From IMG/VR virus record IMGVR_UViG_3300009709_000007, positions 1 through 46,787 of that record: a stretch of 46,787 nt of DNA. One strand, given 5' to 3'. Positions 2,811 through 17,570 of the stretch are shown here, piece by piece (position 1 is the first letter of the stretch; each line of letters starts with the position of its first letter). The position numbers and the translations under genes are program-made. Under the pieces are notes generated by a model, which saw nothing but the letters and a program-made list of their open reading frames with translations, searched no databases and was not told the origin of the DNA. This DNA comes from a virus.

Positions 2811-4471
2811 TGACCGACGACAAGCCGAAGCGTTACCGCCGCACGAAGGCCCAAATGGCGGCTGATCGGGCCGAAGCCACACGGCTCGCAGGCGCGACCC
2901 CGGCTACGACGCTACCCCCTCTCGGTTCTAACGAGACGCGGCGCGCGGGCTTGGCCGCGGCCGTCCTGAATGCCCCCGCGGCCGGGCCTACGCCCAGCGT
3001 TGCCGCGGCGACGGGGTTCCACGTGGAACCCGAACACTACTCCAAGCGTGAGCGGGCGCAGGCCCATATGGCGATGGACTTCAACGGCGCCAGCATGAAC
3101 GCATTGTCGTTCGTGGAGGCTTCGGGCTGGCCCGGTTTCTCCACGCTCGCTCTCTTGGGTCAGCTGGCCGAATATCGGGTGATGCACGAGGCACTGGCCG
3201 ACGAGTGCGTGCGTAAGTGGGGCCGCGTGGTCACTTCCGGTAACTCGGACCCGCAGCGCATTCGGGACATTGAGGCCGAACTTGAGCGTCTTAACCTGAA
3301 GGCCGTGGTTCGTCAGATGGTTGTGGATGATCAGGCCTACGGCGGCGCCCATGCGTTCTTCAAGATGAAGGGCGACGATGGCGACGTGGTGAGCAAGAAA
3401 GGTCGCGAGGAGTCCGTGCGCGAGTTGCCACTGGTCGCCAAGCCGTACACGGTGCGAAAGGGCTCGTTCGAGGCCATTCGGGTCGTCGAGCCTCGCCATG
3501 TCACTCCGAACGACTACAACGCAATCGACCCGACCCGTGCGGACTTCTACAAGCCGGTCAGTTGGTGGGTGCTATCGGTCAAGGTGCACGCCTCGCGCCT
3601 GTACACGATCGTGTCGCGCCCCGTATCGGACATGTTGAAGCCGACCTACTCGTTTCGCGGCATCTCCCTGACCCAGCTGGCGATGCCCTACGTGGACAAC
3701 TGGCTGCGCACGCGTCAGAGCGTGTCAGATACCACCAAACAGTTTTCCGTATCGGGCATTCAGACCGACCTGGCCCAGCAGCTCACACCAGGCGCCGGTA
3801 CTGACCTTCAGATGCGTGCCGCGCTTATCAATGCCTACAAAGACAACCGCAACCTGTTGCTACTGGACAAGGCCACGGAAGAATTCTTTCAGGTCAACAC
3901 GCCGCTGACCGGTCTGGACGCGCTCCAGGCGCAGTCCCAGGAGCACATGTCGGCGGTGAGCCAGACACCCCTAGTCAAGCTGACCGGCATCACCCCGGCA
4001 GGTCTCAACGCCTCCAGCGACGGCGAAATTCGCGTCTGGTACGACCGCGTGGGCGGTTACTGCAAGAACGTGCTGGGACCCTTCATCGCGCGCGTGCTGG
4101 AGCTGGTCCAGCTGTCGCTGGATAGCGTCATCGACGAGCACCTGTCATGGGACTGGAACCCGCTGCACGAGCTGACCGCGCTGGAGGAGGCCGATCGCCG
4201 AGCGAAGGACGCCGACACGGCGGCCAAGTACATCGAAGCCACGGTCATCACGCCCGAGCAGGAAGCCGAACGGCTGGCGAACGATCCGACCAGCGGCTAT
4301 GCCGGCATCCTGAACAGGCCAGCGACGCCGGACGACTTCGACGACACTGACGTCCAAGGCATCGTCAACGAATTGCTTGAGCCTATGGCCGAGGAAGCTG
4401 CAAATGGAACTACGGATGCCGGGCAAGCGGTCCAAGACCCTGCCACCGATCCCGTCCAGCCACTCGGCTGA
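2810..4471 (+). CDS. Portal protein
   Basis: 553-aa ORF immediately after terL (TGATG stop/start overlap). Size and position are typical, it has an acidic C-terminus, and it resembles DUF1073-type portals by recall. Confidence 0.8.
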   Translation: MTDDKPKRYRRTKAQMAADRAEATRLAGATPATTLPPLGSNETRRAGLAAAVLNAPAAGPTPSVAAATGFHVEPEHYSKRERAQAHMAMDFNGASMNALSFVEASGWPGFSTLALLGQLAEYRVMHEALADECVRKWGRVVTSGNSDPQRIRDIEAELERLNLKAVVRQMVVDDQAYGGAHAFFKMKGDDGDVVSKKGREESVRELPLVAKPYTVRKGSFEAIRVVEPRHVTPNDYNAIDPTRADFYKPVSWWVLSVKVHASRLYTIVSRPVSDMLKPTYSFRGISLTQLAMPYVDNWLRTRQSVSDTTKQFSVSGIQTDLAQQLTPGAGTDLQMRAALINAYKDNRNLLLLDKATEEFFQVNTPLTGLDALQAQSQEHMSAVSQTPLVKLTGITPAGLNASSDGEIRVWYDRVGGYCKNVLGPFIARVLELVQLSLDSVIDEHLSWDWNPLHELTALEEADRRAKDADTAAKYIEATVITPEQEAERLANDPTSGYAGILNRPATPDDFDDTDVQGIVNELLEPMAEEAANGTTDAGQAVQDPATDPVQPLG

Positions 4472-5345
4472 AACGGCCTACCGCGAGAAGCTCCAAGCGG
4501 CCGTGCGCCTCATGACGCGCAGCTACCAGTATTGGCTGGGCGCGCGTTACCGCGAGGCGATGGACGAGAACATCGACGCCGGCATCGTCCCGGACAATGG
4601 CGACCTGGCTTCCGACGCCGCGCCGAAGTGGTCGCGCAACCGGCTGTTCAAGGAGCTGGACCGCCTGCGGAAGTACTGGGACGGGCATTTCGCCGACCTG
4701 GCCCGGAAGCTCGCCATCGATGCGACGCAGGCGCTGTACAAGGCCAACAAGACCGCGTGGGCGGCGCAGGTGCGCAAGGCGGGGTTTGATATCCCGATGC
4801 AACTCACGGCGCCACAGCAGGCTATCCTCGACTTGTCCGTGCGTGAGAACGTCTCGCTGATCAAGTCCATACCGCAGCAGTTCCACACCTCGATTGAGGG
4901 CGTCGTTGCGCGCGGCTTCGTCGCCGGTCGAGACTTGAACGCGATCGCTACGGAGATTGTCAAACACGAAGGCATCACCACGCGCCGCGCCGCGACGATT
5001 GCGCGCGATCAGGCCAACAAGCTCACCGCACAGATGAACTCGGCGCGTCAGGAACAGCTAGGGTTGAAGTGGGCCGTTTGGCGCCACTCGAGCGCAGGCA
5101 AGGAGCCACGTGCTGCGCACGTGCGCGCCAGTCGCGAGGAGTGGATTTATGACACGCAGGTAGGCATCGACTTCGGCGACGGATTTGGCTACGTGCTGCC
5201 CGGCGGGGGCGCAATTAACTGCCGCTGTGGGGGCCGCACGCTCATCCCGTCAATTGCCCGCGGGCTCACCTCGGGCAAGCAGTTCGATCCGTCCAAGCTG
5301 GTTGCCGTCCCTGGCTTCCCGGGCGCTTACAAGATGGCCGCTTAG
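4404..5345 (+). CDS. Head morphogenesis protein (SPP1 gp7 / Mu F-like)
   Basis: Follows the portal. WAVWRHSSAGKEPRAAHVRASREEWIYD and INCRCGG resemble the gp7/F family (recall). I chose ATG 4404 because gaggaa lies 7 nt upstream. TTG 4377 and ATG 4416 are alternatives. Confidence 0.7.
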   Translation: MELRMPGKRSKTLPPIPSSHSAETAYREKLQAAVRLMTRSYQYWLGARYREAMDENIDAGIVPDNGDLASDAAPKWSRNRLFKELDRLRKYWDGHFADLARKLAIDATQALYKANKTAWAAQVRKAGFDIPMQLTAPQQAILDLSVRENVSLIKSIPQQFHTSIEGVVARGFVAGRDLNAIATEIVKHEGITTRRAATIARDQANKLTAQMNSARQEQLGLKWAVWRHSSAGKEPRAAHVRASREEWIYDTQVGIDFGDGFGYVLPGGGAINCRCGGRTLIPSIARGLTSGKQFDPSKLVAVPGFPGAYKMAA

Positions 5346-5443
5346 TTACCAACAGAACCAGTAACCACAGCCCGGAGCCTTGCAGGCAACACCACCACCC
5401 CGAGACGGTGACAACTGAGCGCCACAGTCGGGGCAAGGGTCAT

Positions 5444-5644
5444 CTACTGCGTCAGCAACCGCAGGCCCTTGCATGGCTCTCTCTGCCGCCCCATCGCATA
5501 GCCCGTTGCCGAGTGCCAGAGAAGAATCGCGGCACGCTTATCCAGGGGACCGAATTCGCTGGCGACTTCAAATGCTTGGTTGAAGGCTCGCAACTCATGG
5601 CGCAGCTGTGCGGGAGATTCATCAAAAGGATACTTGTCGGACAT
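5444..5644 (-). CDS. Hypothetical small protein (accessory cassette 1)
   Basis: 66-aa minus-strand ORF, last gene of a three-gene minus cassette driven by the promoter at 6227-6255. Confidence 0.45.
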   Translation of the reverse strand: MSDKYPFDESPAQLRHELRAFNQAFEVASEFGPLDKRAAILLWHSATGYAMGRQREPCKGLRLLTQ

Positions 5645-5662
5645 GTGGGTGCCTCGGTGAGG

Positions 5663-5818
5663 TTAAAGGCGGTGCGTGAGCGCCAGCACGACGACCACGA
5701 CTAGGATCAGCAGCACGATGCTGGACGGGCCATAGCCCCAGCCCGCGCTGTAACCCCAGGTCGGCAGGCCGCCCAGCAGGGCCAGGATCAACACGACGAT
5801 CAGAATGGTCATCAACAT
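5663..5818 (-). CDS. Small membrane protein, DUF3309-like
   Basis: Hand-translated 51-aa ORF, below the track cutoff: MLMTILIVVLILALLGGLPTWGYSAGWGYGPSSIVLLILVVVVVLALTHRL. It has two hydrophobic segments around a PTWGYSxxWGYGP core, typical of DUF3309 (recall). Confidence 0.65.
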   Translation of the reverse strand: MLMTILIVVLILALLGGLPTWGYSAGWGYGPSSIVLLILVVVVVLALTHRL

Positions 5819-5874
5819 GGCTGGCGCTCCGGCGGTTTAGGTGGGCGCAGTACGCGCCGCGAAATGTGAAGACA

Positions 5875-6195
5875 CTACGCCACGTAGCCGGACATCTCGT
5901 CGAAGATACGGACAGCCTCGAACCCATCATATTCGCTGATCTCAAAGGTGTACCCTTGCGGCACCCACTCCACCGACAGCGGCACGCCGAGCGTGCACAC
6001 GTATTCCTCATTTGCCCACACCCGCTCGATCACGGCCAGCTGTGTCTCGCCAGTTTCGCCAAGTGCAGCGGCAACGAGATCGGGGCAGAAAACCGCCTCC
6101 TCGCCGAGGCATCCGTTCCAGGTAGACCATCCCGCACCGTAACCAGGTGAATATAGAACGGCAACCTTGCCGTCGCGTACAACTTTGTCCGTCAT
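5875..6195 (-). CDS. Hypothetical protein (KVAVLYSPGYGAGWSTW family)
   Basis: Start trimmed to ATG 6195 (MTDKVV), which has ggag upstream. The track start 6258 lies inside the promoter. The motifs recall a widespread uncharacterised phage/plasmid family. Confidence 0.6.
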   Translation of the reverse strand: MTDKVVRDGKVAVLYSPGYGAGWSTWNGCLGEEAVFCPDLVAAALGETGETQLAVIERVWANEEYVCTLGVPLSVEWVPQGYTFEISEYDGFEAVRIFDEMSGYVA

Positions 6196-6226
6196 TTCGA
6201 TAACTCCAGTGGGTAGGTGTAGGTCT

Positions 6227-6255
6227 ATCTTACTTACTTCTCGATTACCTGTCAA
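6227..6255 (-). promoter_or_regulatory. Sigma70-like promoter for cassette 1
   Basis: The reverse complement reads TTGACA-ggtaatcgagaagtaag(17)-TAAGAT. The spacer contains GGTAATCG, which is the family core CGATTACC in inverted orientation. Confidence 0.65.
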
Positions 6256-6303
6256 CAATGTGTTGTGTAGCAGGTCTCGCTTTGTCTACTATGCAGCAAG
6301 TCC

Positions 6304-7710
6304 GTGATAACGCCCGAATTTATGACCGACAATCGCGTCACCTTCGCCTTCGACAAAGCTAGTGCCCGCTCGCGGGACGCTGACGGTCGCATGCGCGTGA
6401 AGGACTGCGTGCTGTCCACCGCCGAAGTGAACCCTTACCGCGGCAACGAAATTCCGGGTTGGCAAGAACTCGGGTTGGACCCAAACCGCATTTACGAGCT
6501 GTACCGCGATCCAGACGAGTTAGAGAAGTCGGTCCCGACCTTTGAAGCTAACCCGATCATGGTCAAGCACATCCCCCAGACCGCGGATGAGCCGCGCAAG
6601 GAATGGATGGGCGGCGCGGTGCATTCCATCCGCTTCGAAGGCAAGCACCTACGCGGTGACTTGCTAGTCATGGATGGTAAGGCTATCGAGCTGATCGAGT
6701 CGGGTGAACTGGCGGACCTCTCGTGCGGTTACCGCTATACGCCGGACATGACCCCGCGCACCGTCAATGGCCGTGAGGTTGATGGTACGATGCGCAATAT
6801 TCAGGGCAACCATGTTGCCCTGGTGGACGACGGTCGCGCGAGTGGGGCGCATGTGGCCGACCGTGCTTTGCAAGACCCCCAATCGCTTACCTGTGGAGAC
6901 ATGGCAATGACCGATATCACCAAGCCGGCCGTCCCGGCAACGCCGGCCGCGCCCGCGGCCGACGCCAATCCGCCCGCTGCGGCTGCTCCGGCTGCGGCTC
7001 CTGCTGCACCCGCCGCGCCCGCGGCTGATCCCAACCTGGCCTCCATTGGCGAGGGCTTGAAGCACATCGCGACCATGCTTCAGAGCATGATGGAAGGCAT
7101 GCCGAAGGCTGAACCCAAGCCCGAAGAAGCTGCGCCTGCGCAGGACAAGGCGGATGGCGATCCGACCGAGAATGGCAATCCGTATGACGACGCCACGGGT
7201 GGTGCGATGGACCTGGAACTCCAAGAAACCGTGCCCAACTCAGGCGGCCTGAACGCCAGCGATGATGTCGACCCGCTGGCCGCCCCGGGCGAGACTGAAC
7301 TGCCGCGCCAGGCGCGCCAGGAAGGCACGACCGCGCGCGGTAATGCGTCGCCGGTAGGTGCGATGGACGCGGCGACGGTGCAACGCCACGTGGCTTCGGC
7401 GGTCGCCGCTGAACGGCGCCGGGCGCATGAAGTGGACGAAGCCAAGCGCGCGGTACGCGGCGTGCTGGGCGATGTGTACGGCATGGACAACGCCGGCCAG
7501 ATTTACCGCGAAGCACTCAAGGCGCAGGGCATCGACACCAGCGGCATCCCCCGCGGCATGGCGAAGCTGGCTTGGCAGTCACACGTGCAGACGGTTACCC
7601 AGTCCCGCGGTGCGCGTTCGCAGTCGGACATGGCGATGGACGCCGACGCGATCGGCCAGACGCAGAAAGACTTGCTTGCCACCCTCGGCAGCATCAAGAC
7701 CCTCGGCTAA
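6304..7710 (+). CDS. Putative head scaffolding/maturation protein (DUF2213-like) with an Ala/Pro-rich linker
   Basis: Lies between the morphogenesis and capsid genes. N-terminal motifs (NPIMVKH, LSCGYRY, GNHVALV) resemble DUF2213 by recall. A low-complexity PAAPAA linker is present. ATG 6322 is an alternative start. Confidence 0.55.
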   Translation: MITPEFMTDNRVTFAFDKASARSRDADGRMRVKDCVLSTAEVNPYRGNEIPGWQELGLDPNRIYELYRDPDELEKSVPTFEANPIMVKHIPQTADEPRKEWMGGAVHSIRFEGKHLRGDLLVMDGKAIELIESGELADLSCGYRYTPDMTPRTVNGREVDGTMRNIQGNHVALVDDGRASGAHVADRALQDPQSLTCGDMAMTDITKPAVPATPAAPAADANPPAAAAPAAAPAAPAAPAADPNLASIGEGLKHIATMLQSMMEGMPKAEPKPEEAAPAQDKADGDPTENGNPYDDATGGAMDLELQETVPNSGGLNASDDVDPLAAPGETELPRQARQEGTTARGNASPVGAMDAATVQRHVASAVAAERRRAHEVDEAKRAVRGVLGDVYGMDNAGQIYREALKAQGIDTSGIPRGMAKLAWQSHVQTVTQSRGARSQSDMAMDADAIGQTQKDLLATLGSIKTLG

Positions 7711-7725
7711 TCGGAGAACACTACC

Positions 7726-8232
7726 ATGTTCCAGAATCAGGTTTACATCACTCCGGCCGTGGCCGTCCCGGGCGATTTCGCCTCCACTAACTACGGCATC
7801 TACAAGGTGTCCAGCACCGGCAAGATGGTCGCCGACGCGGCTGGCGTCACCGTGGGTCGCTTCTGCGTCCTCAACGCTGACGGTACCGTGACCTCCATCC
7901 CGGGCGCAGCCCCGACTGGCGGTCTGTCGCGTATCGGTTTCGTGTCGCGCAGCTTCGGTGTCGCGCAGATCACCACGTACCTGGACGAGTACGGCAACAC
8001 GATCCAGGTCGGGCAGCCGGTCCCGGCGTGGGGCGCGGGCGACTGGTTTGTCAATGTGGATGCCATCACCGGCACGCCGTCTCGCGGTGCCGCCGTTCTG
8101 TGGGACACCACTACCGGCCTCATCAATATTGGCGGCACGGCCACGGCCACGCTGATCGACACTGGCTACGAGATGCTCAGCGAGTCGGCCACGGTCGGCA
8201 CCACTGTCATCATTTCCAACCTCGGCGCGTAA
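7726..8232 (+). CDS. Putative head decoration/cement protein
   Basis: 168 aa, with ggaga RBS, immediately upstream of the major capsid gene. The composition is beta-rich and Gly/Thr-rich. Confidence 0.45.
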   Translation: MFQNQVYITPAVAVPGDFASTNYGIYKVSSTGKMVADAAGVTVGRFCVLNADGTVTSIPGAAPTGGLSRIGFVSRSFGVAQITTYLDEYGNTIQVGQPVPAWGAGDWFVNVDAITGTPSRGAAVLWDTTTGLINIGGTATATLIDTGYEMLSESATVGTTVIISNLGA

Positions 8233-8250
8233 GCGAACAGGAGCACAGCA

Positions 8251-9258
8251 ATGAACGATCGTCAGCTTATCGCGTCGTTGGCTAACAAGGGCGTCATTCT
8301 GCCCTCGTCGGTCAGCAACATTTCCATCCCGGCAGACCAGTACGCCATGGACGCCGCGTCCCTGGCCCCGACGCTGGTCACCAATGCCAACTCGGGCATT
8401 CCGTCGTTCCTTACCACCTTCGTCGATCCGAAGGTGATCAAGGTCCTGGTCGCCCCCATGGCCGCCGTCGAACTCGTTGGCGAAGCCAAGAAGGGCGACT
8501 GGACCACGCTCAACGCCGCATTCATCGTGGCCGAGCCGCTGACCCGTGTCGCTACCTATGGCGATTACAGCAACGACGGCACGTCCAACACGAACGTGAA
8601 CTACCCGGAGCGCCAGTCCTACTTCTTCCAGACGTGGACCCGTTGGGGCGAGCGTGAACTCGAAATGGCCGGTGCCGGCCGTATCGACCTGGCGGCGCAG
8701 CTGGACTACGCTTCGGCCCTTGGCCTGGCGAAGTTCTTGAACCAGTCCTACCTGTTCGGCGTAGCCGGTCTGCGTAACTACGGCCTCATGAACGACCCGC
8801 GCCTTCCGGCTCCAGTCGCCGGTACGGTCAACTGGGCGACGGCCGCTCCGGAAGCCATCTTCAACGACATCGTGGACACCTTCACGCAGTTGCTGTCGCA
8901 GTCGCAGGGCCTCATCAAGCAGAGTGACGAGCTGACCCTGGGCCTGCCCCCGACCGCCGTGGGTAACTACAACCGTACCAACTCGTACGGCCTGTCGGCG
9001 GCGAAGCTGCTCAAGGATGCCTTCCCGCGCATCCGCATCGTGGAAGTGCCGGAGTTCGACACGGCCACCGGTCGTCTCATGCAGATGTGGGCGCCGGAAG
9101 TTGAGGGCCAGCAGACCGCGACCTGCGCGTTCACCGAGAAGATGCGCGCCCACGCCGTGGAACGTTACAGCTCCTACTTCCGTCAGAAGAAGTCGGCCGG
9201 TACCTGGGGTGCGGTGATCTTCCAGCCGCTCGCCGTAGCGCAGAAACTGGGCATCTGA
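8251..9258 (+). CDS. Major capsid protein
   Basis: 335 aa with a strong aggag RBS. Its position after the scaffold/decoration genes and a strong terminator just downstream fit a capsid gene. It resembles DUF2184-type capsid proteins by recall. Confidence 0.75.
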   Translation: MNDRQLIASLANKGVILPSSVSNISIPADQYAMDAASLAPTLVTNANSGIPSFLTTFVDPKVIKVLVAPMAAVELVGEAKKGDWTTLNAAFIVAEPLTRVATYGDYSNDGTSNTNVNYPERQSYFFQTWTRWGERELEMAGAGRIDLAAQLDYASALGLAKFLNQSYLFGVAGLRNYGLMNDPRLPAPVAGTVNWATAAPEAIFNDIVDTFTQLLSQSQGLIKQSDELTLGLPPTAVGNYNRTNSYGLSAAKLLKDAFPRIRIVEVPEFDTATGRLMQMWAPEVEGQQTATCAFTEKMRAHAVERYSSYFRQKKSAGTWGAVIFQPLAVAQKLGI

Positions 9259-9293
9259 CCTTGGATCGGGGCACGACTGACTGCTAGACCGAA

Positions 9294-9325
9294 AGGCCCG
9301 GATCATTCCGGGCCTTTTTCTTTTG
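9294..9325. terminator. Rho-independent terminator after the capsid gene (bidirectional hairpin)
   Basis: Stem aggcccgga, loop tcat, stem tccgggcct, followed by tttttctttt. It overlaps the 3' end of the convergent minus ORF 9303-9524. Confidence 0.85.
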
Positions 9326-9524
9326 CGGTCTTGGCAATCTGGTGCTTCCAGAAGTCGCGCTCGCCGCGAAGCATCTGGCCGACCGGGTTGCTTGCCGGGA
9401 AGCCCTTGATCGTGCTGTTGAGGTTCCGCAACGCGTCTTGCGCGATGTCCACGCCGTACTTCTCCAGTGCCTTGCGGCCCTCGATGATGCCGTTGCAGTA
9501 GTGCTCGCTGGCAGTGCTGGGCAT
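9303..9524 (-). CDS. Hypothetical small protein (single-gene antisense accessory unit)
   Basis: 73-aa ORF with gaggaa RBS and its own promoter at 9554-9582. It ends in the terminator hairpin. Confidence 0.6.
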   Translation of the reverse strand: MPSTASEHYCNGIIEGRKALEKYGVDIAQDALRNLNSTIKGFPASNPVGQMLRGERDFWKHQIAKTAKEKGPE

Positions 9525-9553
9525 GGGCAGTTCCTCAATGGGTTAGTGGGGTC

Positions 9554-9582
9554 ATCTTATCGCTAGGTAATCGCGTTGTCAA
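9554..9582 (-). promoter_or_regulatory. Sigma70-like promoter, conserved-spacer family
   Basis: The reverse complement reads gtgTTGACAacgcGATTACCTAGCGATAAGAT (17-nt spacer). Confidence 0.75.
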
Positions 9583-9652
9583 CACTTGAGGCGCGTTGCC
9601 GTGCAGTCAGTGTGAGGCTGCTAAAACCGTGCGGTAACGAATGGAGCCACGC

Positions 9653-10117
9653 ATGACCACGAACGTTCAATACGACCTGACCGCAACCAATCTCGCACCT
9701 GGCTCCGCGCCGCAATCGGTCCTTCTGACCGCCGTGGTCAATCCGGACGGTTCGGCTATCAGTGCCGGCGCGAGCGGTGGATCGTCAGGTGCTACGTCTT
9801 TCGCCAGTGAGTTCGTGACTTCGGATACACCCGTGGACATCAAGGTGCCCGCGGGCGCCATGAGTGTCCTAAAGTCCTTGCGGGCTACCGCTTACGATCC
9901 ACAAGCCGCTCAAGCAGGGACTGGCGTACTCCACTTGATCATCGACAGCGTGGTCTATTCGTTACCTTACGCGGCGGCCAGTGCGTCCACCAACAACGTG
10001 TTCGAGCTGGCTTACCTCGAAAACCTCAACATGCCGATCACCGGGAACGCGATCCAAGCTCAGCTAGGGAGTGCGCTAACTGGCGGCGGGATCGTTGTCA
10101 CCGCGACATTTGCTTAA
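9653..10117 (+). CDS. Hypothetical protein (possible virion protein)
   Basis: ATG 9653 is preceded by ggag. The plus-strand ORF lies between the capsid gene and the minus cassette, and its composition is Ala/Ser/Gly/Thr-rich. Confidence 0.5.
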   Translation: MTTNVQYDLTATNLAPGSAPQSVLLTAVVNPDGSAISAGASGGSSGATSFASEFVTSDTPVDIKVPAGAMSVLKSLRATAYDPQAAQAGTGVLHLIIDSVVYSLPYAAASASTNNVFELAYLENLNMPITGNAIQAQLGSALTGGGIVVTATFA

Positions 10118-10476
10118 CGCGGGTGCCACCAGGTTTCCGAACCATGCTGCGCCATGCAGTTTTCAAAGGCGCCTTGGGCAATCTGATCAGGCGTGGACAT
10201 CATCCATCCACCGTAGTGGTAGACCATGGTGAGGTTCACTTCGTTGTCCGCTGCGAGACGCGGATTAGTGGTGTTGGCCGGACCCCGCCGAAGAATGGTC
10301 AGCAGCGCTTGTTCTTTGAACCCATCGTCGCGGTAACCGGCTAGCGTCCCCGCCACGCCAGCAACACCGACGCAGTATTCAAAGAGCGGGCGAGTGTACG
10401 CAGTGTTTTCGTAGCGTTCGGCCATCACGGGCGCCGCGATCAGCACGAGCAGTGCAGTAGCTAGTAATCGTTTCAT
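10114..10476 (-). CDS. Secreted/periplasmic hypothetical protein
   Basis: The start MKRLLATALLVLIAAPVMA looks like a Sec signal peptide. ggag RBS is present. I trimmed the track start 10500 to 10476. Confidence 0.6.
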   Translation of the reverse strand: MKRLLATALLVLIAAPVMAERYENTAYTRPLFEYCVGVAGVAGTLAGYRDDGFKEQALLTILRRGPANTTNPRLAADNEVNLTMVYHYGGWMMSTPDQIAQGAFENCMAQHGSETWWHPR

Positions 10477-10631
10477 ACTCCGTCCCTCGCTTTGAGCCAA
10501 CCCTTGATGAAAGCCCTACGCTCGTCCGAACCGAGCGGCCATTTCAACGCTAAGCAATCAGCTACCAGGGGGGCGTCGCCCGAGCGTAACCCACAACTCT
10601 AGGTAGCTATTGTAACCCTGTTCTTCCGGGG

Positions 10632-11462
10632 TCATGACTTACCTCCGGCGCGCTCGAGTGCGGCAAAAAGGGCATCGCGCTCGCTACACCACGCCGCCGA
10701 CCGCGCCGACTCCGCCGCCGCCGACCGCGCCGACCACGCCGACCACGCCGCCGACCGCGCCGCCGACCACGCCGACCGCGCCGCCGACCGCGCCGCCGAC
10801 CGCGCCGACGCCGCCGACGCCGCCGCCGACCACGCCGCCGCCGACTCCGCCGCCGACTCCGCCGCCGACTCCGCCGCCGCCGACCACGCCGACCGCGCCG
10901 CCGACCGCGCCGCCGACCGCGCCGCCGACCGCGCCGCCGACAATTCGCATGTGTTGCCACCGGCGGCGGCCTCGTGTGCGCGGCGACCGACACCCAGCGC
11001 GGCGATAACGCCTTCGATTGCCTCATGCACGCCGTGGTCATGCTTCTTTTTCAGGAGCTCACTCAACGTGCCGAACTGCCGGTCAATACGATCAATGGCG
11101 ATCCAGTGCTGGACAGGCTCAAGATCAGCTCCCACCGGGATCCGCTTAGCCAGGTCAACATGGAAGTTGGCCCTGAGCTCCTGCGGAAGACCTTCGAACA
11201 TCGAATCCTGAAGGCGGATCAACCAGACGGGGAGTCCACGCGCTCCTGCCACCACCTCGTGCCAGTTGGCACCCGTGGTCGGTTCGATCTCGTGAGCAAA
11301 GCAGCCAACCGAGCAGCCCCGGAACTGGCCGGCGTCTACGTCACCGAACGTGCCGGCGACCAACATGTCAGCAGCAGCGTGCCGCTCGGCCTGGGCAACG
11401 TGAGTCGCCTTCAGCGCGGCATCGCCGAAGAAAGACAAATGGGACTTATTGGTAGTGGTCAT
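10632..11462 (-). CDS. Hypothetical protein: ~170-aa N-terminal domain plus ~85 residues of SAAX tetrapeptide repeats
   Basis: This is the only frame with a coherent non-repeat N-terminus, an RBS (aggaaa) and its own promoter (11491-11519). The repeat region reads SAARSAARSAARSAARSAWSAAAESAAESAAESAAAWSAA... Confidence 0.7.
   Translation of the reverse strand: MTTTNKSHLSFFGDAALKATHVAQAERHAAADMLVAGTFGDVDAGQFRGCSVGCFAHEIEPTTGANWHEVVAGARGLPVWLIRLQDSMFEGLPQELRANFHVDLAKRIPVGADLEPVQHWIAIDRIDRQFGTLSELLKKKHDHGVHEAIEGVIAALGVGRRAHEAAAGGNTCELSAARSAARSAARSAARSAWSAAAESAAESAAESAAAWSAAASAASARSAARSAARSAWSAARSAAWSAWSARSAAAESARSAAWCSERDALFAALERAGGKS
10684..10945. repeat. Tandem 12-bp (some 9-bp) GC-rich coding repeats
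   Basis: Units such as gccgccgaccgc repeat about 22 times. On the coding strand each unit is tcggcggcgcgg, which encodes SAAR. The track shows ORFs in four frames across the region because the repeats lack stop codons. Confidence 0.9.
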
Positions 11463-11490
11463 GGGGTTTCCTGTCTGTGAGTGTGTGACT

Positions 11491-11519
11491 ACTTTATCGA
11501 AAGGTAACTGCTATGTCAA
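11491..11519 (-). promoter_or_regulatory. Sigma70-like promoter, conserved-spacer family (drives the SAAX-repeat gene)
   Basis: The reverse complement reads gtgTTGACAtagcAGTTACCTTTCGATAAAGT (17-nt spacer). Confidence 0.7.
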
Positions 11520-11522
11520 CAC

Positions 11523-11696
11523 TTATTTCGTGGTCGGGACGCAGCGCACAAATACTGGACCCTCCTGGCGCAGTTCACGTGTGCCCAACGCGGCGATCCG
11601 GCACGCAGTAGGGCTAGCGTACAGCTTGGCGACGTAGTTCACGCACTGCATCGACTGCATGCTGCACAGGGTGAAGACAAGCGCGGTCAGGTTCAT
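11523..11696 (-). CDS. Hypothetical small protein
   Basis: 57 aa. Its ATG overlaps the upstream stop as ATGA (11693-11696). Confidence 0.45.
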   Translation of the reverse strand: MNLTALVFTLCSMQSMQCVNYVAKLYASPTACRIAALGTRELRQEGPVFVRCVPTTK

Positions 11697-11917
11697 GAAC
11701 CGTCTCCAGGCAGCGCGGTCACCAACGACCGCACGTAGCAATGGGTGATGTAGCGCGAGCCGTCCGAGTGTTGCCACACGCGGCACCAGCGATTGGCGTA
11801 GTAGATCATGAAACGCGTCGGGAGCCGGATGGCGCCATGCATGGACTTGGACTGCGGAACGGGCGTCGTACGTACGCGCACGGTGCGCGTCTCGTCTTTC
11901 AGGTGCAGAAGGGCCAT
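11693..11917 (-). CDS. Hypothetical small protein
   Basis: 74 aa (MALLHLKDETRTV...). ATGA overlap with the upstream gene at 11914-11917... precisely, the ATG occupies 11915-11917 and the upstream TGA occupies 11917-11919. Confidence 0.5.
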   Translation of the reverse strand: MALLHLKDETRTVRVRTTPVPQSKSMHGAIRLPTRFMIYYANRWCRVWQHSDGSRYITHCYVRSLVTALPGDGS

Positions 11918-12177
11918 CACTCCCCCTGCCGCAGGTGCATGCGCGCCTGCTTCAGTCGGCCGGCGCGGCAATCCAGGTCCACGAGCCGCTTGACGAGATT
12001 GTCGTAGATAGCGGCTAGCTGCGTCTCGGCCGCGGTGATCGCGTCGCTAGCCTTCGCATAGACATCGGCCTTCAGGACCTTGCGCCGCCCCGTGAGCCAG
12101 TAGTCGGGCGCATCCAGAGCCGGCCGCAGGTTCACCGCTTGGACGCGTAGGGAGGGTGTCACGATGTAGCCCTTCAT
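11917..12177 (-). CDS. Hypothetical small protein
   Basis: 86 aa (MKGYIVTPSLRV...). ATGA overlap with the upstream gene at 12174-12177. Confidence 0.55.
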   Translation of the reverse strand: MKGYIVTPSLRVQAVNLRPALDAPDYWLTGRRKVLKADVYAKASDAITAAETQLAAIYDNLVKRLVDLDCRAGRLKQARMHLRQGE

Positions 12178-12353
12178 GCCCAAGTATCCAGACTAGGTGT
12201 CAGCGGTTTGACCTCAAGGATGACGACGTAGTGGCCTTCGCCGCGGTCGTGCTCGCGAGCCAGTCCCGCGATACGGTCGGACAGCAGGTCCGTCGTGAGG
12301 CAGTCATCGGTGAATTGCACGCCGTTGATGGTATAGGTGAGGTTGTAGAACAT
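12174..12353 (-). CDS. Hypothetical small protein
   Basis: Hand-translated 59-aa ORF, below the track cutoff: MFYNLTYTINGVQFTDDCLTTDLLSDRIAGLAREHDRGEGHYVVILEVKPLTPSLDTWA. It starts 2 nt after the upstream stop. Confidence 0.5.
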   Translation of the reverse strand: MFYNLTYTINGVQFTDDCLTTDLLSDRIAGLAREHDRGEGHYVVILEVKPLTPSLDTWA

Positions 12354-12355
12354 GG

Positions 12356-12550
12356 TCAGACCTCCAGTCCAGTGATCAAGCCCACTACAAACTGATCGAG
12401 TTCAAGGCGCGCCGCCATCAATTCGGCTGCAATTGCTTGAGCCTCACCGGGCGGCTGCGCGCCGCTCCATGCTTCGTCCGCGGCAGCTTCGATGAGTCGA
12501 TTTCTTAGCATGTTGTACTTCGCGGCCTTATCCTGATTCGATGTGTTCAT
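12356..12550 (-). CDS. Hypothetical small protein, first gene of accessory cassette 2
   Basis: 64-aa ORF downstream of the promoter at 12583-12611. Confidence 0.55.
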   Translation of the reverse strand: MNTSNQDKAAKYNMLRNRLIEAAADEAWSGAQPPGEAQAIAAELMAARLELDQFVVGLITGLEV

Positions 12551-12582
12551 TGTGGGGGCGTCTAGCAGGTGAGTGTGGGCGT

Positions 12583-12611
12583 AGCTTACCGCTAGGTAAT
12601 CGGCATGTCAA
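12583..12611 (-). promoter_or_regulatory. Sigma70-like promoter, conserved-spacer family (drives cassette 2)
   Basis: The reverse complement reads gtgTTGACAtgccGATTACCTAGCGGTAAGCT. It has a 17-nt spacer and a perfect TTACC-tagc-GGTAA dyad. Confidence 0.75.
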
Positions 12612-12678
12612 CACCCCTAGAGCGCGGCATCGTGATATTCTCCCACTACATCAACCTTTAGCCCTTTGGAGCACCCTC

Positions 12679-13065
12679 ATGGCAAAAAATGACACCAAGC
12701 GTTCCGCTACGACCGTTACCGTCGCCTGCAAGCTCCCGATGGGCCTCGCCGTGAAGCTTCCCGATGGTTCGCACCTGCACCTGCATGGCGCGAATTCACC
12801 GTGGGCCGTGGCCGGCTTCGGCCTGACCCAGGGCGTCAGCTCGGACACCTGGGACTTCATCAAGCAGGAACACGCTGGCGCCAAATGGCTTGTCAACGGC
12901 TTCGTCTTCGCGCAGAGCGAGCACGACTCGGCAGTGGATCAGGCGAAGGACGAAGCCGAGCGTAAAGCGGGCTTCGAGCCGATCGACCCGAACAACCTGC
13001 CCAAGGGCGTGCAGAACGGCGGGGGCAACATCGGCAAGGAAGGCCGCGACCCGTTCGCGGGCTAA
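12679..13065 (+). CDS. Hypothetical protein (head/neck module)
   Basis: ATG 12679 is preceded by ggag. 128 aa. I trimmed the track start 12541 because it lies in the divergent promoter region. Confidence 0.55.
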   Translation: MAKNDTKRSATTVTVACKLPMGLAVKLPDGSHLHLHGANSPWAVAGFGLTQGVSSDTWDFIKQEHAGAKWLVNGFVFAQSEHDSAVDQAKDEAERKAGFEPIDPNNLPKGVQNGGGNIGKEGRDPFAG

Positions 13066-13083
13066 CCGCAGGAGCCCGCAGTC

Positions 13084-13554
13084 ATGGCTATCGTCGTTTT
13101 TGACCCAACCGCCTTCAAGACGATCTACCCGGAGTTCACCACGTACCCGGATGCGCGGTGCGTGGCGATGTTTGGCCTGGCTGCGGGTGCCCTTCTGGAC
13201 AACACGGACAACTCGCCCGTGATGTCTCTGGACGTGCGCACGAACCTGTTCTATCTGCTCGTTGCGCATCTGCTGACACTGTTCGGTGCGGGCGGTATCA
13301 AGCCGGGTTCGGGCGCGCCCCCGGGACGCCTGTCCACGGCCACGCAGGGCAGCGTCACGGCGGGGTTCGAGTACCAGATTCCGCAAGGCTCCATGTTGGC
13401 GCCCTGGTTCCTCCAGACGCCCTACGGCGCCCTCTACTGGACGGCCATCGCGCCGTACCGCAGCGCGCGCTACGTCGCTAATGGCGACAGCGGCATCGGC
13501 TTCTCGCGCAACTACGATCGGCCCTACTGGCCGCGCGTCCCGGGCGGCATATGA
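13084..13554 (+). CDS. Putative head-tail connector (DUF4054-like)
   Basis: aggag RBS. The N-terminal FKTIYPEFTTY motif is typical of DUF4054 by recall. Its position before the neck, sheath and tube genes fits. Confidence 0.55.
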   Translation: MAIVVFDPTAFKTIYPEFTTYPDARCVAMFGLAAGALLDNTDNSPVMSLDVRTNLFYLLVAHLLTLFGAGGIKPGSGAPPGRLSTATQGSVTAGFEYQIPQGSMLAPWFLQTPYGALYWTAIAPYRSARYVANGDSGIGFSRNYDRPYWPRVPGGI

Positions 13555-14027
13555 GCGTCTCGCGCCGCGGTGTCCGTATGCCGGCCTTCGCCAAGCGCCT
13601 GTTCAAGACAGGTACGGTGAAGGCTGGCGTCCTGTCGGGCGCGACGTATCCGGCTGACATGCTGACCGATGCGCGCACAGGCGAACAAATGCCGGACAAG
13701 CGTGAAGGCATGCCCGTCGCTTCCATCGCCATGGCGCTGGAGTACGGCCACGGGCAGAACCATCCCCGGCCTTTCATGCAGAACTCTGTCGCCAACCACG
13801 GGCCGGAATGGGCGGAAGCCTTGCGGACACTGGTCAAGGGCGGCGATGGAGCGGACGAAGCGCTTCTAACCGTAGGCCAGGTCATGAAGGAAGACATCCA
13901 GGAAACGATTCGCTCTTGGCCGCAGGACAATGCTAAGTCGTGGGCGGACTTCAAGGGCTTTTCGCATGGCTTGATATTTACGGGGCACTTGCTAAACTCC
14001 ATCGCATCCGAAATAGAGGGCGAGTGA
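13551..14027 (+). CDS. Putative neck/head-tail joining protein
   Basis: 158 aa, ATGA-coupled to the upstream gene, and positioned in the connector block. Confidence 0.45.
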   Translation: MSVSRRGVRMPAFAKRLFKTGTVKAGVLSGATYPADMLTDARTGEQMPDKREGMPVASIAMALEYGHGQNHPRPFMQNSVANHGPEWAEALRTLVKGGDGADEALLTVGQVMKEDIQETIRSWPQDNAKSWADFKGFSHGLIFTGHLLNSIASEIEGE

Positions 14028-14028
14028 C

Positions 14029-14592
14029 GTGTCAGAATGGCGGCCTGTTGTGGGTTTTGAAGATCAGTATCTCGTCAGTGACTGCGGCCGCGTCCTGCGC
14101 CGCGAGCGCGTTATCGAGCGCAGCAATGGCCACCACTACACGGCGAAGGAAATGGAGCTGGCACAGGTTGCCTACGGTCACACCCGCGAGTACCTGGGGG
14201 TGGGTTTCAAGGTGGCCCGAAAGACCAATCGCGTGTTTCTGGTGCATCGATTGGTTGCAGCGGCTTTTTTGCCGAATCCTGACGGGCTTCCCGAGGTAAA
14301 CCACAAAGACCTAGACAAGCGCAACAATAACGTAGCGAATTTAGAGTGGTGCGGTAAGGTTGCCAATCAGGAGCATGCCGCTAAGCGTGGACGCTTTCAT
14401 GGGCGCACTAACCCGAACGCCCGCTTTAAGCTTCAACCCGAGCAGGTAGATGCCATCTTGGCGCGGCTTTCTGCGGGCGAGAAAGGTGTAGACCTAGCCG
14501 CAGAATTTAACATCTCGCCGAGCATGGTTTACATGATCCGCAAGGGGGCAACTTGGGCCGATCCCGCGAAGGTGTATGCACATGTCGCGTAG
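14029..14592 (+). CDS. HNH homing endonuclease (NUMOD4 + HNH_3 type)
   Basis: SEWRPVVGFEDQYLVSDCGRVL matches the NUMOD4 motif, and VNHKDLDKRNNNVANLEW matches an HNH core. A C-terminal HTH-like segment is present. GC content is visibly lower than in the neighbouring genes. Confidence 0.85.
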   Translation: MSEWRPVVGFEDQYLVSDCGRVLRRERVIERSNGHHYTAKEMELAQVAYGHTREYLGVGFKVARKTNRVFLVHRLVAAAFLPNPDGLPEVNHKDLDKRNNNVANLEWCGKVANQEHAAKRGRFHGRTNPNARFKLQPEQVDAILARLSAGEKGVDLAAEFNISPSMVYMIRKGATWADPAKVYAHVA

Positions 14593-14607
14593 TAAGGAAG
14601 GTGCCGA

Positions 14608-15048
14608 ATGACCCTCGATATGCACGGCATCGTCCGCGGCGCGATCCAGTCGGTGAATACCGACATCCCGGGCACGGTGTACGTCTCCACCGGCTACACC
14701 AACGTGCGTGGCATCCTGACGCCGACCTTCGCCGCGGCGAACGTGGACTTTCAGGTGCAAGCCGACACGCACGACAAGCTGTGGCATGAGCGCTCGCTGG
14801 CCTACACGGTCGGGCACACCATCGTCTACGCCTACGGCAACCTGTCGGACCTCAACCGTCCCGAGGGTAAGGGCGGCGATATCTTGTACTATAATGGTAA
14901 CTGGCAGGTAATTACACAGGTCCAGGAATGGTGGAGCACGTGGTGCTGCGTGTCCGTCTCGCAGCAGCTGGACGCCGCCACGCTCGACGCGCTGCTGGCG
15001 CTGATCAAGAATGGCGACGTCGCAACGCCACAGGGTTTCACGCCATGA
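14608..15048 (+). CDS. Hypothetical neck/tail completion protein
   Basis: 146 aa with aaggaagg RBS. It lies in the connector block. Confidence 0.45.
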   Translation: MTLDMHGIVRGAIQSVNTDIPGTVYVSTGYTNVRGILTPTFAAANVDFQVQADTHDKLWHERSLAYTVGHTIVYAYGNLSDLNRPEGKGGDILYYNGNWQVITQVQEWWSTWCCVSVSQQLDAATLDALLALIKNGDVATPQGFTP

Positions 15049-15578
15049 CCGCCGTGCTCACCCCCACCGAGGATCAGGTGTTCGGCCAGGTCTGGGACCT
15101 AATCGCCGCCTACTTCGATCCGTCGGTGCAGCAGGTCATCTTCAAGGGCTTCCAGAACCTGACCGCGACGCCTAAGGGTAGCTACATCGTCATCTCCCCG
15201 GGCGTGAACGTCCGGCAGAATCAGCTTGAGCGCGGTTACGACCCGGTAACGGGCATGCAAATCTTGACCCGCCGCACGACCTACAGCTATCAGGTGGACT
15301 GTTATGGGCCGATGGGTCCGGATTGGGCCAACACGATCGCTATCGCCTGGCCTTCCCTGTGGTCGATCGACAATAGCGACCAGCCGCCCATGATCACCCC
15401 CCTGTACGCTGACGAGCCTCAGCAGCTGAACATCGTCAACGGCGAGTTGCAGTGGGAGCAGCGCTTCATGTGCAAGCTCTACGGACAAGTCAACCACCGG
15501 GTGGCGTTGCCGCAGACGTTCTTCACCGATCCGCCCGCTATCGGGCTCGTTGTCGCTGACGACCTGCCCGTGGTGTAA
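15045..15578 (+). CDS. Putative tail terminator/neck protein
   Basis: ATG 15045 overlaps the upstream stop as ATGA. 177 aa, immediately upstream of the sheath-like gene. Confidence 0.45.
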   Translation: MTAVLTPTEDQVFGQVWDLIAAYFDPSVQQVIFKGFQNLTATPKGSYIVISPGVNVRQNQLERGYDPVTGMQILTRRTTYSYQVDCYGPMGPDWANTIAIAWPSLWSIDNSDQPPMITPLYADEPQQLNIVNGELQWEQRFMCKLYGQVNHRVALPQTFFTDPPAIGLVVADDLPVV

Positions 15579-15636
15579 TGCGCCAGCAAGACCCTGAAAC
15601 TGTTAGAATCCCAGCACGTCAACCCGGAGTCGCGGC

Positions 15637-17127
15637 ATGAACACGATCCCTATTAGTCAAATCTCCCGGGTTGTACCGGGTGTCATCGCAGCGGGCGGTC
15701 AGGCGTCGCGCCTCACTGGTCTGCTGCTCTCGCAGGATGCTTCCGTTCCGCCCGGCCAGGGACTGGATTTCTTCGATGCGCCCACCATGACCAACTGGTT
15801 CGGTCCCTCGGCCCCTGAAGCCACGGCTGCGGCCAGCTACTTCCCGGGCATCAACAATGGCGGTCAGCTCCCGTTTGACCTGAAGGTCGTGCGTTACGCG
15901 CTCGCGGCGACGCCTGCGGGCTCGTACGGTGCGCCCGTGCCGTCCACGCTCTCGCAGCTTCAAGCGCTGTCCGGCACGCTGATCGTGACCACCAACGGCA
16001 CGCAGAAGACCTCCAGCACGATCAACCTCGCCACGGCCACGAGCTACGCCAATGCGGCGACGCTCATGACTGCGGGCTTCACGACGCCGGACTTCGCCAT
16101 CACCTGGGACGCCCAGCGTGGTCGATTCCTACTGCTGACGACCACTACCGGCATCGCGGCTACCTCGACCGACGTGTCGGGCACGCTTGCCGCGCCTGTC
16201 GGCCTGTCGGCGGCCTCTGGTGCTTACATCCAGCAGACGGGCGTCGCAGCCGATACGCCGGCTTCCGCTATGGCCCGTGCCGTGACCTTCTCGGACAACT
16301 GGGGTGCGTTCACCACCGCTTGGCAGGCAACGCTGGCCGATCGACTGGCCTTCCATGCATGGAACACCACGCAGAACTCGCAGTTTTGGTATGTGGGCTG
16401 GGACCAGGATGCCGCTTCGACGCAGGTCAACAACGCACTGTCGTTCGGTGCGCAGGCCTTCGCCTCGCAGGGTAACGGCACGATTCCCATCTATGGCGAC
16501 CTCGCCATTGCAGGCGGCGCGCTGGCCTATGCTGCGTCCCTGAACTTCAATGTGGCGAACGGCCGCACAACCCTCATGGGGCGTACTCTGTCGGCCTCCG
16601 TGGCGCCTAGCTGCACGGACCTGGCGACCGCTAACGCGCTGCTGTCAAACAACTACACGTACTACGGCGCCTACGCCAACGCCGCGAACAACTACCTGAT
16701 CTTCGAGGACGGCAAGACCTCCGGCCAGTTCCTGTGGGCCGATACCTACCTCGACCAGATTTACCTGAATCGTGAGCTTCAGCGCGCCGGCTTCGAGACG
16801 ATGCTGGCCTACAACTCGCTGCCCTACAACCAGGATGGTTACGACGCGTTCTACCGCGCCTGGGCCGACGTGGCCGAAGCGGCGAAGACCTCGGGCATCA
16901 TTCGCGCCGGCGTCACGCTGTCGGCGTCGCAGGTTGCTCAGGTCAACAACAAGGCCGGTCGCGACGTGGCGAGTGTTGTCAGCACCCGCGGCTGGTATCT
17001 GCTGATCACCGACGCAGCGAATGCGGCTCAGGCGCGCCAGAATCGCACGAGCCCGCAGGCGACGTTCTTCTACTGCGACGGCGGCTCGATCCAGCAGATT
17101 TCCCTCAACTCGATTGCCGTCATCTAA
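15637..17127 (+). CDS. Tail sheath-like protein (DUF3383-like)
   Basis: 496 aa, followed by a small tube-like gene. Size and order are typical of DUF3383/DUF3277 contractile-tail clusters (recall). Confidence 0.6.
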   Translation: MNTIPISQISRVVPGVIAAGGQASRLTGLLLSQDASVPPGQGLDFFDAPTMTNWFGPSAPEATAAASYFPGINNGGQLPFDLKVVRYALAATPAGSYGAPVPSTLSQLQALSGTLIVTTNGTQKTSSTINLATATSYANAATLMTAGFTTPDFAITWDAQRGRFLLLTTTTGIAATSTDVSGTLAAPVGLSAASGAYIQQTGVAADTPASAMARAVTFSDNWGAFTTAWQATLADRLAFHAWNTTQNSQFWYVGWDQDAASTQVNNALSFGAQAFASQGNGTIPIYGDLAIAGGALAYAASLNFNVANGRTTLMGRTLSASVAPSCTDLATANALLSNNYTYYGAYANAANNYLIFEDGKTSGQFLWADTYLDQIYLNRELQRAGFETMLAYNSLPYNQDGYDAFYRAWADVAEAAKTSGIIRAGVTLSASQVAQVNNKAGRDVASVVSTRGWYLLITDAANAAQARQNRTSPQATFFYCDGGSIQQISLNSIAVI

Positions 17128-17138
17128 GGAGAACGACA

Positions 17139-17570
17139 ATGGCCGGTACACTTACCGTTGCGAACTCTACCTTGACGCTCACGGTAGAGGCGCTTTTCCC
17201 CCAGGCTCAGCGCATTCAGGGTTACTCCGCGGACGACGCGTTTGACTTCGAGAACGTGGAGAACGGCGAATACTCCATGGGCATCGACGGCAACCTGTCG
17301 GCGGGCTTCGTGTTCAACGAAATCCCGTTCACGTGGACGCTCCAGGCCGATAGCCCATCGCTGGCGATGTTCGAGCAGATCTGGAACTACGAGGTCAGCA
17401 ACCGCACCAAGCTGCGCCTCGATGCCACCCTGTCGCTCGTGAGCAATGGCCGCCGCTACGACCTGGTGCAGGGCTACCTGCGCCAGTACAAGGCGCCCAG
17501 CGGCAAGAAGATTCTACAGCCGGCCGTCGTGTCGGGCGTCTTCTCCCGACTGGTGCCGTCGCCGCTGTAA
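17139..17570 (+). CDS. Tail tube protein (DUF3277-like)
   Basis: 143 aa with ggaga RBS. It directly follows the sheath-like gene and is the last gene before the module 1 terminator. Confidence 0.55.
   Translation: MAGTLTVANSTLTLTVEALFPQAQRIQGYSADDAFDFENVENGEYSMGIDGNLSAGFVFNEIPFTWTLQADSPSLAMFEQIWNYEVSNRTKLRLDATLSLVSNGRRYDLVQGYLRQYKAPSGKKILQPAVVSGVFSRLVPSPL

Follow-up and report, generated by a model that had tools for sequence, protein, structure and literature searches.

A promoter family with a conserved spacer block precedes fast-changing accessory genes in an uncultivated Bcep781-like myophage

Lambdoid and other temperate phages carry morons, extra genes that are inserted between conserved structural genes and bring a promoter, in some cases also a terminator, of their own; they were reportedly described by Juhala et al. 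and by Hendrix et al., both in 2000. The early promoters of T4 have an AT-rich consensus that extends beyond the hexamers, together with an UP element, and have no regulator assigned to them, and the operator/stoperator sites of L5-type mycobacteriophages include the -35 sequence TTGACA. In T4-type phages, the PeSL cassettes are repeated near-consensus sigma70 promoters that lie beside ORFans differing between close relatives, and they form recombination boundaries (PMC2839356, PMC4122927). The acr-aca operons have to be kept repressed, as read-through does harm (PMC9410906, PMC8633003). The promoter family described below resembles each of these systems in part. No promoter analysis of Bcep781-like phages was found in the literature searched.

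The window, that is, the whole stretch of DNA analysed (46,787 bp, 62% GC), is the complete-looking genome of an uncultivated myophage from the metagenome assembly Logan SRR5829574. Its two ends (1-123 and 46665-46787) are identical over 123 bp, pointing to an assembly that is circular or terminally redundant and has ~46,664 bp of unique sequence. Megablast of the region against phage records gave no close nucleotide match; the large terminase is 75% identical to those of the Burkholderia phages Bcep781, Bcep43, Bcep1 and BcepNY3, and 66% identical to that of the Ralstonia phage PQ43W, and the gene order is collinear with that of both the Bcep781 group and PQ43W. Head and neck genes (133-17570, + strand) are followed by replication genes (17627-29475, - strand), tail and holin genes (29796-41273, + strand) and lysis and recombination genes (41505-46471, - strand). 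Rfam and tRNA scans of the window returned no matches, and no shared late-promoter motif was seen upstream of the rightward operons on inspection by eye. Relatives were gathered through homologues of the major capsid protein (contigs L208-L211, 81-91% identity) and of the primase (contigs L212-L216, 76-85% identity); these, and L205, a metagenome fragment from a further relative, have the same architecture as the window. Exact-pattern scans of viral, metagenome and genome collections yielded almost only single chance matches, L205 being the sole true relative; a match in an Acidobacteriota MAG was rejected, as it is without homology to the window.

Five promoters in the window, P9582, P12611, P11519, P25390 and P31011, constitute one paralogous family, which we term class I. 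A sequence-only reading of this DNA had listed these five and a sixth, P6255, and all six of the sequences that it quoted are exact in position and strand, as are the GTG preceding four of the class-I promoters and the CTA preceding the fifth, 31011(+). It had also proposed that the family shares far more than its hexamers, and this is borne out; nor is the motif equally common at random positions. TTGACA-N6-TTACC has six exact matches in the window, where 0.00 are expected, and five of the six are the listed promoters; four of the five matches to CGATTACCTAG with at most one mismatch fall in promoters; an unguided repeat search of the window recovered four promoters as a 40-nt repeat family (D6); and the count of full members is exactly five both by a PWM scan and by an nhmmer profile, neither of which added any in the window or in 1.5 Mb of family loci beyond the closest clade. 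The sixth match to TTGACA-N6-TTACC (21883-21899, - strand) is not a promoter: it lies inside the helicase gene, is without a -10, and matches the homologous coding site in Bcep781. The spacer motif does not occur as a stand-alone operator either: at 43850 and 44013 it is ordinary coding sequence.

All five class-I sites are intergenic and are oriented toward a downstream translatable gene. The geometry TTGACA-N17-TAnnnT is common to all of them and to the 17/17 family sites that include their orthologues (with TTGACT in one orthologue), and the consensus reads GTG-TTGACA-T-nn-CGaTTACCTA-nCnn-TAAnCT-nnnCnC-A(+1)CAnTCAC, where the spacer block CGaTTACCTA (-26 to -17) is also written as the CGATTACCTA block. 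In each of the six promoters of the window, an A preceded by C or T lies exactly 7 nt past the -10; this is the predicted +1 (A9547, A12576, A11484, A25355 and A31046 for P9582, P12611, P11519, P25390 and P31011, respectively, and A6220 for P6255), and the start codon follows 0-35 nt after it. Four class-I members have a C/A-rich leader of 22-26 nt and then an ATG, with a GGA-type Shine-Dalgarno sequence in three of the four; the ORFs behind these four have coding-type GC3, and the same downstream genes were called independently in public Logan assemblies. P25390 has its predicted +1 at the first base of the ATG at 25355, giving a predicted leaderless mRNA, and in each of its orthologues (L212 4048, L213 4385 and L214/L215 4235/4216), the ATG lies 6-7 nt past the -10, which places it at +1/+2. 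Of the in-silico evidence for the predicted promoters and start sites, this clade-wide leaderless arrangement is the strongest.

P9582 (9539-9585, - strand, corresponding to -38 to +9; GTG-TTGACA-acgc-GATTACCTAGCGA-TAAGAT) has orthologues at L208 9386, L209 6943, L210 8541 and L211 10121. Its cargo gene (9303-9524, - strand), which is also called in the Logan assembly, encodes a 73-aa ORFan with a GAGGAA Shine-Dalgarno sequence and no Pfam or PHROG match, and occupies a hypervariable slot between the promoter and a terminator hairpin. The latter (9291-9318) is bidirectional, with a 12-bp stem, a T tract on the + strand and a weaker TTTC tail viewed from the minus strand, and closes both the major capsid operon and the P9582 slot. 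A 16-nt block, ACTGCACGGCAACGCG (minus strand; 9590-9607, about -45 to -60 of P9582), is kept in all five phages compared and may be a control element of the divergent rightward gene starting at 9653.

P12611 (12568-12614, - strand; GTG-TTGACA-tgcc-GATTACCTAGCGG-TAAGCT) is the best nhmmer match and the only member in the window with a perfect TTACC-N4-GGTAA dyad; its orthologues are found in L205, L208, L209, L210 and L211. The cassette behind it (11523-12550, - strand) opens with a variable gene (12356-12550, 64 aa) and continues with a conserved core (12174-12353, 11917-12183, 11693-11971 and 11523-11786, - strand), the families running F11, then F2, F1, F4 and F3; none of the proteins has a functional match in Pfam or PHROGs. 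P11519 (11476-11522, - strand; GTG-TTGACA-tagc-AGTTACCTTTCGA-TAAAGT) abuts the stop codon of the same-strand upstream gene, and the one orthologue found is at L209 8763. Its cargo (10114-11462, - strand) comprises a 276-aa tandem-repeat protein (10632-11462) and then a conserved 120-aa secreted protein (10114-10476). The former is an ORFan whose C-terminal third derives from ~20 tandem 9/12-nt repeats (peptide SAARSAA/ESAA; repeat families D1/D2), and it is missing from the four relatives examined.

P25390 (25355-25393, - strand; GTG-TTGACA-tccc-GGTTACCTAGGAC-TATCCT) is placed in the replication module, where its neighbours run in the same direction. The operon that it heads (23690-25355, - strand) encodes a helical protein of 79 aa (25116-25355), proteins of 63 aa and 92 aa, the latter being Cys-rich, and a DNA methyltransferase (23690-24826), and the 73-79-aa protein directly downstream of the promoter is kept in L212, L213 and L214/L215. 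AlphaFold2 models the 79-aa protein as one long helix (mean pLDDT 82). An invariant HGYYxSRxDxR motif is seen in this protein, which has only five close homologues among 5.8 billion proteins. P31011 (31008-31054, + strand; CTA-TTGACA-tgcc-GATTACCTACAAG-TATCGT) is situated 16 nt downstream of a strong terminator hairpin (30959-30994, + strand) and precedes the gene for a 206-aa acidic ORFan (31067-31687, + strand), where Bcep781 has a tail-fibre gene and gp48.

P6255 (6212-6258, - strand; TTGACA-GGTAATCGagaagtaag-TAAGAT) is related to class I and forms a distinct class. The sequence-only reading took its spacer for the core of the family in inverted orientation; the inverted CGATTACC is indeed present, but it is not conserved, two orthologues reading GGTCATCG, and the orthologues (L208 5957, L209 3536 and L210 5271) have a conserved spacer of their own, GGT(A/C)ATCGnAATGTAAG. 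The cassette (5346-6195, - strand) consists of four small genes, whose products have 106, 51 (DUF3309), 66 and 42 aa (CxxC...CxxC), and is placed between the Mu-F-like head gene and the protease gene. Its last ORF (5346-5474, - strand; 42 aa) has two CxxC pairs, is zinc-ribbon-like and abuts the stop codon of the Mu-F-like gene; as no terminator follows it, transcripts of the cassette should run antisense into that gene. A further promoter, P26663 (26636-26663, - strand), has a perfect TTGACA, a 16-nt spacer without the TTACC block and a TG before TAAGAT; it lies within the 3' end of the primase gene, is kept in L214-L216 and drives the next small gene. Returning to the listed promoters, these drive small genes with no function assigned, none of which matches a known virion protein family, much as had been proposed. 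The accompanying claim that four of them run antisense in the structural region is correct for 6255, 9582, 11519 and 12611, but not for 25362-25390, given its co-directional position in the replication module.

Conservation was assessed over 17 sites, namely, the window members and their orthologues in five paralogue groups; as many of the sites are orthologous, the independent observations number nearer 5-8. Positions -38 to -29, -26 to -17, -12/-11/-7 and -3 to +8 are conserved, and those interspersed among them are random. In the upstream half, T-37, G-38/G-36, TTGACA, T-29, C-26, G-25, the TTA at -23 to -21, C-20, C-19, T-18 and A-17 are invariant or nearly so, as are T-12, A-11, T-7, C-3, C-1, A+1 and parts of +2 to +8 in the downstream half. 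The information content over the 17 sites is 1.1-2.4 bits at -26, -25, -23 to -17 and other conserved positions, and 0.1-0.2 bits at -28, -27, -16, -9, -5 and -4; the positions of the block are conserved in 15-17/17 sites. The post-capsid orthologues have acgc, gtac, aggc, cgac or tggt at -29 to -26, and the next 13 positions (-25 to -13) are kept. Since fixed and randomised positions alternate in this manner, both among paralogues and among orthologues, the block is, as judged from the alignments, under purifying selection and not merely inherited. It is not a generic sigma70 feature; nor can an overlapping promoter on the opposite strand explain it, since three of the five members lack a neighbouring gene in divergent orientation. 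Additionally, the promoter orthologues cluster more tightly than the paralogues, and thus nothing suggests that recombination is still homogenising the copies.

The full motif is confined, according to nhmmer, to the closest clade of the window, and a TTGACA-N6-TTAC core is found in Bcep781 (3 sites), Bcep1, Bcep43, PQ43W (2 sites) and some IMG/VR relatives. In these relatives, TTAC occupies spacer positions 7-10 in 11 promoter-like sites, compared with 0-3 sites at any other offset, and the sites also precede accessory inserts in structural modules, for example the gp12 methyltransferase of Bcep1. The TTAC-type promoters of Bcep781 (7219, 26253 and 29747, - strand) and Bcep1 (7769, - strand) have the common flanks TGC-TTGACA-T; in the Bcep781 group, promoters of this type precede small accessory genes or methyltransferases in the head and tail modules and point the same way as the late genes.

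To compare the cargo, the cassette proteins of five phages were searched all against all. The gene directly after the P9582-type promoter encodes a different, non-homologous ORFan in each of the five. The P12611 cassette has a conserved core of F2-F1-F4-F3-F0, and what precedes this core varies: the window has F11, L209 has F6, L210 and L211 have F8 plus F6, and L208 has no such first gene. In L209, F0 directly follows the P11519-type promoter; in the window, the 276-aa repeat protein lies between the two and thus fills the promoter-proximal slot of P11519. The boundaries of nucleotide homology are equally sharp. In the P9582 region, homology extends through the capsid gene and the terminator to 9323, is lost over the cargo and is back at 9522-9531, at the start codon; at P12611, homology with the relatives begins exactly at 12568, which is +9. 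The breaks at the edges of the cargo, taken together with its replacement, imply that the promoter module is older and more stable than the genes it expresses, and this argues for the promoters acting as putative fixed expression slots at which genes are gained and replaced. What is new is that the promoter is stable, and the adjacent downstream ORFan differs in every relative.

On balance, we favour the interpretation that class I comprises host sigma70 promoters that serve as fixed slots for swappable accessory genes, with the spacer block being read by a factor. In such a mechanism, host sigma70 (RpoD) would read five sites of one old paralogous family, and each promoter would fire a short transcript, either C/A-rich or leaderless, into a small accessory cassette, presumably early in infection. 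The cassettes sit inside the conserved structural and replication modules of this Bcep781-like myophage, and most of them run antisense to these. The module from -38 to ~+9 would stay in place and the adjacent ORFan would be replaceable, giving slots for gene gain and replacement, and the 45-50 bp of conserved sequence may provide the homology for gene exchanges. Recombination on short homologies would be compatible with the gene content of the phage, which includes an exonuclease and an Enc34-type ssDNA-binding protein. The block at -26 to -17 would most likely be recognised by a trans-acting protein that modulates the promoters jointly, most plausibly by shut-off, and recognition would proceed mainly via the left block, which is asymmetric; any pseudo-dyad extending into the -10 would be weak. 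That a trans-acting factor of any kind reads the block is nonetheless a tentative proposal, to which we would give rather less than even weight.

The search for such a reader covered ~40 small proteins, namely, those of the cassettes and early regions of the window and of the cassettes of its relatives; no DNA-binding family (HTH, RHH or other) was found among them with Pfam and PHROGs, and three PDB sequence searches gave no DNA-binding match. A reader of novel fold, or one supplied by the host, may still exist. The candidate DNA-binding product named by the sequence-only reading (18672-18980; phrog_17223, a family with no assigned function) yielded a low-confidence model (pLDDT 57), too poor to be informative, and a literature word search for the dyad returned unrelated papers only. 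To our knowledge, the spacer block is not a convincing fit to sigma28, sigma54 or ECF promoters, to IHF, FNR/CRP, LexA, LysR or GntR boxes, or to the lambda cII repeats or the T7 A1 spacer (TAACCTA). Class I does resemble the T4 early promoters and L5 stoperators in its phage-wide conservation beyond the hexamers and in having an asymmetric conserved sequence beside the -35; stoperators differ, however, in that they are mostly not promoters and need a repressor gene, and no such gene was detected here.

A doubtful alternative, albeit one with several points in its favour, is that the element is intrinsic to RNA polymerase: the block and the initial transcribed sequence would together tune binding, isomerisation or escape of the host enzyme, comparable to the extended consensus of T4 early promoters, such that the block could act via the polymerase itself, or via DNA shape, with no dedicated factor. 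The failure to detect a regulator accords with this, as do the asymmetric and contiguous nature of the block, the extent of the conservation, which spans the whole polymerase footprint (-38 to +8) and not just a 14-bp site, and the persistence of the TTAC core in relatives that infect different hosts (Burkholderia, Ralstonia). Nevertheless, P6255 and P26663, with a perfect TTGACA-N16/17, have different conserved spacers and no block, from which it follows that the block is not required for strong recognition in this host; moreover, we know of no sigma70 contact that reads 10 contiguous bases at -26 to -17.

The reading that we consider unlikely, and which the sequence-only reading had placed first, is that a phage or host dimer binds TTACC-N4-GGTAA, or the extended form G-N-TTACC-N4-GGTAA-N-C, centred at -16.5, occluding the -10 and silencing the cassettes together. 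TTAC-N6-GTAA (14 bp) has the geometry of a Cro/cI-type operator, and with at most one mismatch, TTACC-N4-GGTAA has four matches in the window, where 0.37 are expected, three of the four being promoters. Of the five copies, however, 12583-12611 alone has a perfect dyad; 9554-9582 and 11491-11519 match at 4/5, and in 25362-25390 and 31011-31039 the dyad is poor. Over the 17 sites, -16.5 is the highest-scoring axis of symmetry, although modestly so (52% complementary pairs, compared with <=44% elsewhere), and the bulk of the signal comes from TTA (-23 to -21) facing the TAA of the TAAnnT -10. Of the remaining pairs, G-25/C-8 are complementary in 10/17 sites, C-20/N-13 in 8/17 and C-19/N-14 in 10/17 (as C-19/G-14), and the G at -14 could equally be a partial extended -10.

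Perfect dyads are seen in P12611, in its L205 and L209 orthologues and in L213 (TTACC-acaa-GGTAA), and PQ43W has TTACG-gaca-CGTAA in the same register, but their frequency is about that of a 1-in-16 chance per site, and we estimate the chance of a 4-5/5 complementary arm arising near a conserved 5-mer at ~0.15-0.4. Compensatory changes in the inner pairs are absent from the 17 sites: C-19 and C-20 are fixed and -14 and -13 vary (G, A or C), uncompensated examples being TTAAC..GATAA in L210, and TTACG..GATAA and TTACC..CGTAA in L211. In P25390 (TATCCT) and P31011 (TATCGT), the left block is intact and the right arm is destroyed by the -10. When the motif's confinement to promoters and the want of an HTH or RHH gene among the small proteins searched are also considered, the dimeric operator is not well supported: its axis is modest, its arms do not compensate, its right arm is missing in 2/5 members and no DNA-binding protein accompanies it. 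A dyad operator is thus possible, and the conserved unit appears to be essentially asymmetric.

A quite speculative and, in our estimation, improbable version of the factor hypothesis is that the block is the operator of a non-HTH phage regulator that silences all of the ORFan slots, one candidate being the 79-aa helical protein, which would then regulate its own promoter, P25390. Were this true, the conserved promoter would act as a beacon in the genome, marking hypervariable early genes concerned with anti-defence or host takeover across an uncultivated clade. The idea, also raised by the sequence-only reading, that each moron brought its own copy of the promoter cassette, the shared spacer being unselected common descent, is very hard to sustain: although the paralogues are clearly of common ancestry (P12611 and P31011 are identical over 19 nt), the interspersed positions are randomised between them whereas the block is conserved, which requires selection, the same orthologous promoter is kept in five phages with the downstream gene replaced and with homology breaking at the cargo start codon or ~+9, so that promoter and cargo do not travel as one unit, and the duplication predates the split of phages that are ~20% different in capsid protein sequence.

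With class I taken as fixed sigma70 slots, the closest described counterparts are the PeSL cassettes. Both have repeated promoters (TTGACA-N17-TAnnnT here) and small ORFans that vary among close relatives, and in both a conserved motif marks the boundary of the replaced segment. The breakpoints coincide with module edges here, and recombination between copies of the PeSL kind (shuffling, mini-circles) may occur. The setting differs, in that this is a ~46.7 kb Bcep781-like phage with its cassettes mostly antisense inside structural operons, as does the stem-loop, which is not part of the repeated unit: an adjacent upstream hairpin accompanies 1/5 promoters, folding being significant at P31011 (z = -2.85) and not at the other four (z of -0.3 to +1.8). 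Since the upstream stem-loop is restricted to P31011, the analogy with PeSL is functional and not structural. Additionally, there is a 10-bp conserved spacer block here, and none is mentioned in the PeSL text consulted (PMC2839356, PMC4122927). The class-I slots are, by this comparison, best described as a PeSL analogue and not as a PeSL member.

The P9582 slot, with its promoter, 73-aa gene and hairpin between the capsid gene and the next late gene, is laid out as a moron would be. In contrast, the other slots have no clear terminator, and here a single promoter family holds fixed positions with the cargo turning over beneath it. We take the Bcep781 group to be virulent, and the published relative PQ43W is titled a lytic phage in its paper; as the published relatives are lytic, expression from a prophage is not the rationale, unlike for morons. 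The likeness to acr-aca operons extends to a strong promoter with a short inverted repeat, to hypervariable small cargo and to insertion in the head-morphogenesis region, where one slot lies here between the Mu-F-like gene and the protease gene. However, no HTH aca-like gene is found in or near the cassettes, the conserved families F0-F5 are without HTH matches, the dyad is weak and no cargo matches a known Acr family in Pfam.

In practical terms, the 47-bp signature marks where this phage clade keeps its fast-turning accessory genes, and the slots are good places in which to seek anti-defence and host-takeover genes among the ORFans. The notion that conserved promoter cassettes serve as sites of gene exchange, developed for T4-type phages, would with this family also take in the small Bcep781-like myophages, which have Burkholderia, Ralstonia and Xanthomonas-type hosts and several of which are under development for biocontrol. 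Moreover, it predicts a conserved leaderless gene, and the selected spacer element poses a tractable question of promoter biochemistry, that of a factor versus the polymerase.

Three further features of the genome were noted. A GIY-YIG/NUMOD3 homing-endonuclease gene (679-1329, + strand) lies between the small-terminase-like gene and the large terminase gene, and has no counterpart in Bcep781 or PQ43W. In the early region, two adjacent small genes (25931-26158 and 26155-26379, - strand) are paralogous, both having the N-terminus MxxFKVGDRVR, and look like a tandem duplication. Lastly, a ~260-bp AT-rich block with tctgttcg repeats and a very AT-rich core occurs twice in direct orientation (29505-29763, and 46531-46787, continuing into 1-123); the copies are 89-98% identical, and both sit where a leftward replication or recombination operon diverges from a rightward late operon. 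The duplicated block may be a regulatory or origin region. L216, one of the relatives, has its primase cluster connected to the terminase side, suggesting that the repeat permits alternative joins, which would represent either real isomers or assembly ambiguity.
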